Origin: Octopus vulgaris
Lineage: Eukaryota
Length of the DNA: 64,000 nt
NCBI GenBank assembly: GCA_951406725.2
Contig: OX597819.1
Span: 20,088,001-20,152,000 of the forward strand
Direction: 5' to 3'
The notes beneath the pieces are model-generated. The model saw only the letters and a program-made list of their open reading frames with translations. It was not told the DNA's origin and made no database searches. Positions within the stretch are counted from its first letter, which is position 1; every line of letters starts with the position of its first letter. Positions 1 to 62,260 of the stretch are shown one piece after another. The translations under genes were made by a program, and so were the position numbers.

Positions 1-540
1 AAAATATATGCATACATACATACATATATATACGTACCTACATCTACATGTATATATACATGCATATATAAATATATATACGTGAGTACAGGACACCACA
101 ATAGACGTAGAACTCAACGAGAAACGAAAACGTAAATACAAACGTGGAAACGGACCTAAACGAAATAAACAGAGTACAAGACAAACTACACAAGGAAAAA
201 TCCCCTTCATCAGCTGTCCCTAGTTCAACTCCAGCATGTTTCGAAGGTTGGACAGAACACGACTCGTGGAACAAGTCCTTCCTGCGAAGGAATTAAATAA
301 AATTACTTCGCAGAGGGGCAAAATCAAGGAAAGTTAAACATGTGACACAAAAACGATACAAAATAAAATTACAAAAAATAAAAATACAGAATAAAATTAC
401 AAGTACGAAAAATACAATCCAAGAAATAAAACAAACAAAAAACAGACAATGAGGGCCTTAATGCTGGCCTACACGAGGAAAGATTCTAACACTTTGATGG
501 CAGAGATAAAATATGCCCGGCTTAGGGGTCTGAAAAATAT
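1..540 (-). mobile_element. Non-coding Penelope-pLTR/retrozyme-like repeat (family J), copy 1, running into a (TA)-rich tail at the window start
   Basis: The reverse complement aligns by eye with 35826-36340 and 61740-62260 through shared blocks: ttcgcaggaagga, ccttcgaaac, ctga(t/a)gaagggg..ttccttg, cgtttctc, gtgtcctgtactca, catgtaga.gtaggtacgta. The 5' boundary is approximate. Confidence 0.75.
202..261 (-). ncRNA. Non-circularly permuted hammerhead ribozyme candidate, copy 1
   Basis: Minus strand reads CGUG-U-U-CUGUCC-aa-CCUUC-GAAA-CAUG-(15 nt)-GGACAG-CUGAUGA-AGGGG. Stem I is CUGUCC/GGACAG, stem III is CAUG/CGUG, and the cleavage triplet is GUU. Confidence 0.65.
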
Positions 541-35826: not shown

Positions 35827-36323
35827 GGCATTTTCTGTGGCTCCTTCGACGTTCTCAAAAATAGCGTTCGTAATATTTTATTTCGTTCGGCTTAACAGCC
35901 CTTCTTGTCTTTGTTACTGTTATTCTCCTAGTCTTATCTTTTACTGTTTATATTTTGTACTGTCGTTACTATCCTGTTTTGTTACCCTTCCGCAAAAAAG
36001 TCTCAAATTTTATTTAATTTGCTTTTTGCGGGAAGGAAAGTTTAATTAAAGTTGTGTCTCGCCTTGACCTTCGAACGCGGAGTAGATGAAACAAATGCGA
36101 CTGAAGAAGGGGAATTTTCCTTGTATTGTATGTCCTGTACTCTATTTTTTCGTTGTTTAAGAAAAATGTCCATTTACTGGTTTTGTGTTTGTGTTTTCGT
36201 TTCTCATTGTGTTCGACGTTTTTTGGTGTCCTGTACCCATATATGCATGTATATATACATGTAGAGGTAGGTACGTACATATATGTATGTATATATGCAT
36301 ATGTTTTATTTTATTTATTAATT

Positions 36324-36340
<17 letters not shown>
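35826..36340 (+). mobile_element. Family J repeat, copy 2, between microsatellites
   Basis: Strong similarity to 61765-62260 (aaaaatagcgttcgtaata.tttatttcgttcggct.aacagcccttcttgtctt...). Confidence 0.85.
36053..36112 (+). ncRNA. Non-circularly permuted hammerhead candidate, copy 2 (one A of GAAA missing)
   Basis: UGUG-U-C-UCGC-cuuga-CCUUC-GAA-CGCG-(17 nt)-GCGA-CUGAAGA-AGGGG. Confidence 0.55.
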
Positions 36341-36357
<17 letters not shown>

Positions 36358-61205: not shown

Positions 61206-61559
61206 TGTTTACGTAGCTATTAATATATCTGTCGAGATATCTGTCAGAATTTCTGTTTATCTGTCTTTCTGTTTGTCTAGCTAACTTTATGTCTCTCTGT
61301 AGCACAGTCCATCTGTCTCTCTCTATATATATATACATATGTGTGTGTGTGTTCATGTGTATGTATGTATGTGTTGATGTCTTTATGTATGAATATGTAT
61401 GCATGCATATACATACATACATATATTCTTGTAAACATAAACGTATATATGACACAGACATGTAAAAACCTGAAAACCTGCAACGCACACACACACACAC
61501 ACACATACAAATATATATATATTATGATCTCGATATTAATTTTGATGCGCACTCTATAC

Positions 61560-62260
61560 CTTACTGTCCCATCCCTTTCTCAGCCTTCATTCTTTGATTT
61601 CCTTTCTTCTACTTAACTGTCCCCCTCTCTCTCATTCTTCACTCTATCTCTCTCATCCTTCATGGTTTCCTCACAACCATTCCCCTTTCTTCTCTCCCAT
61701 TCTCTTGCTCCTCCTCCTCCCTCCCGTCGTTGACTGTCTTTTCTGGCCTGACCTTTTTGAGGTGTGGATGGCAATTTTCTTTGCTCCCTTCGCCGTTCAC
61801 AGAAAAATAGCGTTCGTAATACTTTATTTCGTTCGGCTAACAGCCCTTCTTGTCTTGTTATTTTATTTGTACTGTCGTTACTGTCCTGGTTTGGTTACCA
61901 TTTTTACCCCTCTGCAAAAAGATCTCAAATTTTATTTGATTTGCTTTTCGCAGGAAGGAAAGTTTCTTTCGAAGATACGTCTCGCCTTCACCTTCGAAAC
62001 GTAGAGTAGATGAAACCATGGCGACTGAAGAAGGGGTTTTTTCCTTGTGTTATTTGTCCTGTACTCTATTTTTTTGTTGTTTAAGAAAAATATCCAGTTC
62101 CTTGGGTTTGTGTCTATGTTTTCGTTTCTCATTGTGTTCGACTTTTTTTGGTGTCCTGTACTCATATATGCGTATATATATACATGTAGAGGTTGGTACG
62201 TACATATATGTATATATATATATATAAGCATATGTTTTATTTATTAATATATATATATAT
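61560..62260 (+). mobile_element. Family J repeat, copy 3 (longest), with a 5' pyrimidine-rich tract and a 3' (TA)n end
   Basis: Aligns with copies 1 and 2. The C/T-rich tract at 61560-61730 is typical of Penelope 3'/pLTR regions. Confidence 0.82.
61976..62036 (+). ncRNA. Non-circularly permuted hammerhead candidate, copy 3 (intact core)
   Basis: UACG-U-C|UCGCC-uuca-CCUUC-GAAA-CGUA-(16 nt)-GGCGA-CUGAAGA-AGGGG. Predicted cleavage is after 61981. Confidence 0.7.

Follow-up and report, generated by a model that had tools for sequence, protein, structure and literature searches.

Among described ribozymes, the closest systems are the type-SGC hammerheads (HRIMA-1 and its variants; Eckert et al. 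2023, PMC10085705). In the accessible sections of that paper, the block made of CUGANGA and its stem II strand is assumed to be uninterruptible, and no SGC ribozyme is reported from the genomes of known organisms. The available text of two further papers indicates that the 9/10.1 junction of known hammerheads tolerates an inserted base (PMC3705267, PMC4209133). Two groups of elements, Penelope-linked or Penelope-like, offer a comparison on the side of the carrier. Non-LTR retrozymes, as far as the available portions of the literature describe them (Cervera and de la Pena 2020; Li et al. 2026; PMC7229834; bioRxiv 10.64898/2026.07.22.740005), are non-coding elements with a type I hammerhead in units of 150-450 bp. 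Naiad elements (Craig et al. 2021, PMC8557442) are described in the accessible parts of their report as lacking a canonical hammerhead and containing 'core' and 'half-core' motifs only.

We found that the hammerhead motif in a repeat of the window, by which we mean the whole 64-kb stretch of DNA analysed, is real and has its three blocks in the non-circular order S-G-C (S, III'-UH-I; G, II'-GAAA-III; C, I'-CUGANGA). The initial annotation had located three copies of such a motif with the triplets GUC, GUC and GUU, and reading of the sequence confirms the positions, the block order and the triplets of all three. The extent that it gave for the main copy, 61976-62036, is too short; the motif runs from 61949 to 62049 and includes a further helix, IIIb. 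The features are as follows.

61525..62258, plus strand: copy, of almost full unit length, of a non-coding Penelope-like repeat, with a (TA)n run on either side (BLAST against tandem locus L010; sequence).
61949..61953, plus strand: 5' strand of P0, CGCAG, with a weakly supported, G-U-rich predicted pairing to 62045-62049 that would clamp both ends of the motif.
61954..61958, plus strand: 5' strand of stem II, GAAGG, with G10.1 at 61954, upstream of the cleavage block; 98.2% paired.
61962..61966, plus strand: 5' strand of helix IIIb, GUUUC, partner of 62012-62016, extending stem III past a purine-rich internal loop.
61976..61986, plus strand: block S, comprising stem III' UACGU (U16.1 at 61980), C17 at 61981 and the stem I strand UCGCC (sequence and covariation).
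Between 61981 and 61982, plus strand: predicted cut; 5' ends of copies accumulate just 3' of this site.
61991..62003, plus strand: block G, comprising stem II' CCUUC (C11.1 at 61995), GAAA (61996-61999) and the stem III strand ACGUA (sequence and alignment).
62012..62016, plus strand: 3' strand of helix IIIb, GAAAC (alignment).
62020..62032, plus strand: stem I' GGCGA, the core strand CUGAAGA (62025-62031) and one further A, with no Watson-Crick stem II strand after it.
62033..62049, plus strand: predicted hairpin Pa (GGGG/UUCC) and 3' strand of P0, UUGUG; GGGG is the strand that the initial annotation had assigned to stem II.
189..286, minus strand: second copy, subfamily B, with identical wiring, intact core and triplet GUU.
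36027..36125, plus strand: third copy, subfamily C, decayed, in an element at about 35830-36357.

The element of the subfamily B copy spans about 1-481 and continues beyond the window edge. The core elements CUGANGA, GAAA and NUH with the A15.1-U16.1 pair are present, the copy at 36053 being short of one A. For this copy the annotated position and triplet stand and the GAAA block does not: it reads CGAAC (36072-36076), and stem I is 4 bp long. As one A of GAAA is deleted, the copy is probably inactive. A topology-free descriptor finds the order S-G-C twice in the 64-kb window and no other block order there.

Like the type-SGC ribozymes in the accessible part of PMC10085705, the motif has the block order S, G, C, three core stems that all cross, a short linker from stem I to stem II' (2-5 nt, as had been claimed) and one extra base after A9. 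In type SGC the stem II strand directly follows CUGANGA; in the present motif it precedes the cleavage block, some 75 bases before the place where hammerheads usually have it, and helix IIIb lengthens stem III. The motif is also found as genomic repeats of an animal, unlike the SGC ribozymes of that paper. Since the stem II strand has moved upstream, the backbone would be opened between A9 and G10.1. From these sequence comparisons, we are fairly confident that this is a hammerhead-type motif, opened at that junction, which cuts the RNA of a non-coding Penelope-like element after C61981.

We examined the proposed helices in an alignment of the family. From 171 copies, 39 without the upstream flank were dropped and 106 distinct ones were left; after thinning of the over-sampled subfamilies A and B, 65 copies and the window copy at 36053 (n=66) were aligned with MAFFT, without structure. 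The pattern-selected loci divide into many subfamilies, and stems I and III covary across them as the initial annotation had proposed, with 93% of cells paired and double changes at 9 of 11 pairs. The covariation score of the three-stem model is 0.53 in the 66 copies, compared with 0.28 for shuffled alignments and at most 0.18 for slid controls. In contigs from four runs of other organisms, A61977G co-occurs with T62002C, a compensating pair in stem III, and 0 of 17 variable places fall in the core or stem II, a count that is not significant alone. Position 17 is A, C or U in 66/66 aligned copies, and G10.1-C11.1, read with the upstream stem II, is G-C in all 66. Invariance of the core in these alignments is partly built in because the copies were gathered by core patterns; the ascertainment-free set for core conservation holds 9 copies, mostly core-selected already. 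Single-strand folding of five copies, with pseudoknots left out of the model, gave z scores of -0.45 to +0.77.

The two candidate partners of stem II' differ in strength. The initial annotation had placed stem II directly after CUGANGA (AGGGG/CCUUC), itself flagging this stem as weak, and this is the weaker candidate. Pairing of GAAGG (61954-61958) with CCUUC (61991-61995) holds in 98.2% of cells (n=329; 317 Watson-Crick, 6 G-U and 6 mismatched), 3 of its 5 pairs are compensated, and this level was reached by 0 of 500 shuffles. In subfamily F the helix reads GAGCA/UGCUC, and a mutual-information scan places its pairs among the 40 highest-ranking column pairs. The compensation in the window's family comes essentially from one subfamily split and therefore represents few events. 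In an alignment-free test on 124 copies with intact stems I and III, at least 5 Watson-Crick pairs with a strand starting 22-29 nt upstream of the cut can be formed in 86, compared with 1/124 and 0/124 in control windows. Estimated stacking energy is -8.7 kcal/mol for the upstream stem II versus -4.1 kcal/mol for GGGG/CUUC. The core itself holds a further GAAGG (62030-62034), which is a trap of equal stability for CCUUC. Pairing of CCUUC with the core's own G8-A9-AGG was rejected: it shows no covariation, 219 of 500 shuffles score as high, and it is broken in subfamily F.

These data bear on the reading that the motif is an ordinary type-SGC hammerhead, with stem II formed by CUUC and the GGGG (62033-62036) that follows the extra A, and with the upstream GAAGG helix as an off-state or a feature in its own right. 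In validated SGC ribozymes, CUGAUGA is indeed followed by one extra base, and the linker that separates stems I and II is short (PMC10085705, accessible sections); the corresponding register is paired in 96% of cells (n=254), with one double change. However, about half of its pairs are G-U (124, next to 120 Watson-Crick and 10 mismatched), and 4 Watson-Crick pairs directly after A9 are present in 0/124 copies, rising to 81/124 once G-U counts; GGGG/CUUC with two G-U pairs is formable in 63 of 77 CCUUC copies. Nor can the register form in the unrelated G family described below or in the coral and ctenophore Naiads of the available consensi, and it is formable in only 3 of 15 Naiad-type copies, 9 of the 15 containing the upstream stem II. 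We consider this reading improbable and the annotated stem II probably wrong. The type-SGC feature of a stem II strand directly 3' of CUGANGA is absent, a G-U-rich version being possible in the window's family only; thus the motif resembles type SGC yet fails SGC on stem II, and would represent a hammerhead variant.

With stem II formed by the upstream strand, the order along the RNA would be the stem II 5' strand, the cleavage block, the GAAA block and the CUGANGA block. Stems I, II and III would cross as pseudoknots and so rebuild the usual core. Helix IIIb emerges from covariation of the linker between stem III and stem I' with upstream sequence, whereas in type SGC an extra helix joins this linker to the sequence 3' of stem II; helix IIIb is 81% paired with a double change at 4 of 5 pairs in a gappy part of the alignment, and is visible in per-family blocks. 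The loop between stems III and IIIb (61967-61975 with 62004-62011) places AGUA opposite GAA, which we take to be bulged-G-like; in the Naiad-type and G families (L258, L315) this loop presumably fits the kink-turn consensus. P0 is paired in 90.6% of cells with a double change at 2 of 5 pairs, and Pa in 89.8% with zero double changes. Both are G-U rich and weakly covarying in the window's family, where they are plausible helices, and both are unclear in the G and octopus-Naiad families. P0 and hairpin Pa would likely substitute for the missing link between A9 and G10.1, and the distal ends of stems I, II and IIIb are connected by linkers of a few bases, which suggests a closed cage.

The same helices could instead form between two RNA copies, as dimers or tandem units in the manner of minimal Penelope hammerheads, and a single-molecule pseudoknot would then be unnecessary. 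Penelope and salamander hammerheads act as dimers according to the available text of PMC4209133 and PMC7229834, units of the present family occur in tandem, stems I, II and III all cross in the monomer, and stem III of the window copy holds the palindrome ACGU. In most subfamilies, however, stem III is non-palindromic, and linkers as short and conserved as those between the distal ends of stems I, II and IIIb suit a compact monomer. The related SGC ribozymes, moreover, were cleaved during transcription of single-copy constructs (PMC10085705, accessible parts). We therefore see the dimeric arrangement as very improbable and prefer the monomeric pseudoknot.

Copies of the family are abundant. 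In the window's genome (G000; 2.8 Gb, 227 contigs), the pattern YTTCGAAAN{20,32}CTGANGAAGG has 2,990 + 2,952 = 5,942 matches, and its reversed control 3 + 3; the pattern fixes blocks G and C alone, and the count takes in copies truncated upstream. The earlier proposal of a multicopy retroelement family with a non-circularly permuted hammerhead thus agrees with thousands of repeat copies. A four-helix descriptor gave 82 distinct hits on both strands of 2.68 Mb of loci, mostly picked for the motif, and 0 hits in 0.95 Mb of shuffled sequence. An Rfam search at E<=1 returned no hammerhead among the 150 matches listed of 222.

The wiring is also found in families that otherwise share no sequence, and in which every catalytic position is conserved together with the A15.1-U16.1 and G10.1-C11.1 pairs. 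One of these, the G family, came to light with the four-helix descriptor.

L310-L339: G family, pattern TCAGCCGAAAN{18,30}CTGANGA.

Its stem II is GGCUG/CAGCC, it has 7,802 matches in the genome versus 7 in controls, and it is unable to form stem II after A9. The G family is more abundant than the window's family, with different stems and a tandem spacing of about 780-855 nt. An octopus Naiad-type motif, with stem II GACAC/GUGUC, has 696 matches in the same genome; at L352, reverse-transcriptase motifs precede it by about 1.2 kb, and this locus is collinear with L357 over 2 kb. Such copies point to a likely octopus-like source of the DNA. Among the Naiad consensi in the accessible material of PMC8557442, those of octopus, coral and ctenophore end, by eye, with RNA wiring identical to that of the window's motif in other letters. 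Specifically, the consensi of Octopus bimaculoides and O. vulgaris/sinensis have GACAC/GUGUC at their 3' ends. Of three Acropora consensi, two have GGCUCC/GGAGCC and the third has one mismatch, with an 8-bp P0 and a hairpin on the 5' side; the end of the ctenophore Beroe has GGCCCA/UGGGCC, an 8-bp P0 and a stem I of just 2 bp. The bases after CUGANGA are unpaired with II' in the coral and ctenophore ends and form two pairs in the octopus end. In the Mnemiopsis consensus and the other matches to term searches of the available PMC8557442 supplement, the wiring is absent.

The carrier has Penelope-like hallmarks: (TA)n targets, partial tandems, inverted 5' pieces and a 30-40 bp tail. Relatives of the window's element are 98-100% identical and lie on many contigs; they are 5'-truncated, some have inverted 5' pieces (L017, L018, L024, L101, L189), and 5 of 30 copies have a 3' tail of about 40 nt. 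Units are arranged head to tail at 836 nt (L112), 856 nt (L010) and 826 nt (L029), with one pair 898 nt apart, and each non-coding tandem unit contains one hammerhead. Within the available descriptions, these units resemble non-LTR retrozymes in being non-coding, in having one hammerhead per unit, and in combining dispersed and tandem copies with a Penelope-like link; they differ in their permuted ribozyme and in their length of 826-898 nt. This likeness is known here from genomic DNA, expression of linear and circular monomer RNA belonging to non-LTR retrozymes. All four hallmarks are shared with Naiad as well (PMC8557442, accessible sections). Unlike Naiad, the window's family lacks an ORF, and comparison of its DNA with 25 Naiad-type loci of the genome gave no collinear match; what the two have in common is the RNA architecture alone. 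Cephalopod Naiads are long inactive according to the available text of that paper, and subfamily A is young (98-100% identical copies).

No element-linked ORF was found across the family loci except in a single chimera, L034. There, at L034:1-1860, the 3' part of a Penelope-like ORF with reverse transcriptase and GIY-YIG is fused directly to a subfamily B unit, which would reflect nested insertion or template switch; a Pfam search gave no classification of this ORF. We considered the Penelope-like element of L034 as the autonomous partner and rejected it. The motif occurs within 1,500 nt downstream in 1 of 30 loci, L034 itself, and the attachment is not repeated in the other 29; among ten 10-kb loci of the L034-type element, 0 have the motif attached. 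At L165:6245-8410, L170 and L171, a Penelope-like element has an open frame of 722 codons, in whose C-terminal part a GIY-YIG-like motif is seen; it has many young copies, forms tandem units of about 5.2 kb and possibly belongs to the Hydra clade by resemblance. A very young 535-bp repeat, tandem and dispersed, with copies about 100% identical (L205-L224, e.g. G000:C17:60865445-60871113), contains by eye a type I hammerhead of the ordinary minimal kind, in which stem III is tiny, and is likely a conventional retrozyme. In runs X10 and X13, guessed to be RNA, a very deep contig matching L010:1576-1648 has the motif with C11.1 changed to U and different sequence upstream; it is possibly a host transcript that keeps a weakened copy of the motif.

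We looked for signs of cleavage in the positions where copies begin. Among 74 pattern-selected copies, 21 start at -1 to +11 of the predicted cut and 3 at -21 to -2; with one internal deletion removed, the counts are 20 and 3 (binomial p 3.5e-6). In the G family, the corresponding counts are 10 of 30 copies versus 1 (9 versus 1 in a second count, p 0.001); in both families the step falls at the family's own predicted cut. The old Naiad-type family shows a weak step, 4 versus 3 of 25. By eye, 20 of 23 distinct (TA)n junctions coincide with the cut or follow it, and TA/AT sites are not enriched downstream of it (0.06 versus 0.09 per nt). Copy 5' ends are found further downstream too, among 300 reverse-strand matches. 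The pile-up after the predicted cut is indirect evidence of cleavage in cells, and the motif of the window's repeat likely cuts its RNA there.

Most of the piled-up ends lie at +5 to +8 and not at 0, just past stem II', and this displacement would also fit a structured, non-catalytic element, such as a signal for the reverse transcriptase, at which polymerase stalling or microhomology creates the pile-up. Against such an element speak the retention of the catalytic positions and of the A15.1-U16.1 and G10.1-C11.1 pairs across otherwise unrelated families, a base 17 that is A, C or U in every aligned copy, and a step at each family's predicted cut. We give this explanation hardly any credence.

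In the mechanism that we favor, with a cleaving motif, cleavage would convert read-through transcripts of tandem units to monomers of about 850 nt. Priming by a Penelope-type reverse transcriptase acting in trans would take place some 250-300 nt downstream, where the sequence is AT-rich. Reverse transcription running off the cut end would give copies that start at the cut, while uncut, multimeric or circular RNA would give rise to longer and tandem copies, such as the one in the window.

In the literature searched, with most subscription papers outside its scope, we found no description of a wiring opened between A9 and G10.1. On balance, we favor a broader interpretation of these sequence data: a natural hammerhead wiring that none of the six supposedly possible block orders covers, with a core whose opening between A9 and G10.1 is closed by added helices, and which cleaves in cells, is the missing ribozyme of Naiads from ctenophores to octopuses and occupies more than 14,000 places in this genome. 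If true, this would break the assumption that CUGANGA and the stem II strand are inseparable, on which the six-permutation scheme and search descriptors are based, and would place a non-circularly permuted hammerhead at high copy number in animal genomes. It would also explain the ribozyme-free appearance of Naiad retrotransposons, and would bear on the question of whether Penelope transposition uses hammerheads in its mechanism or carries them as passengers.
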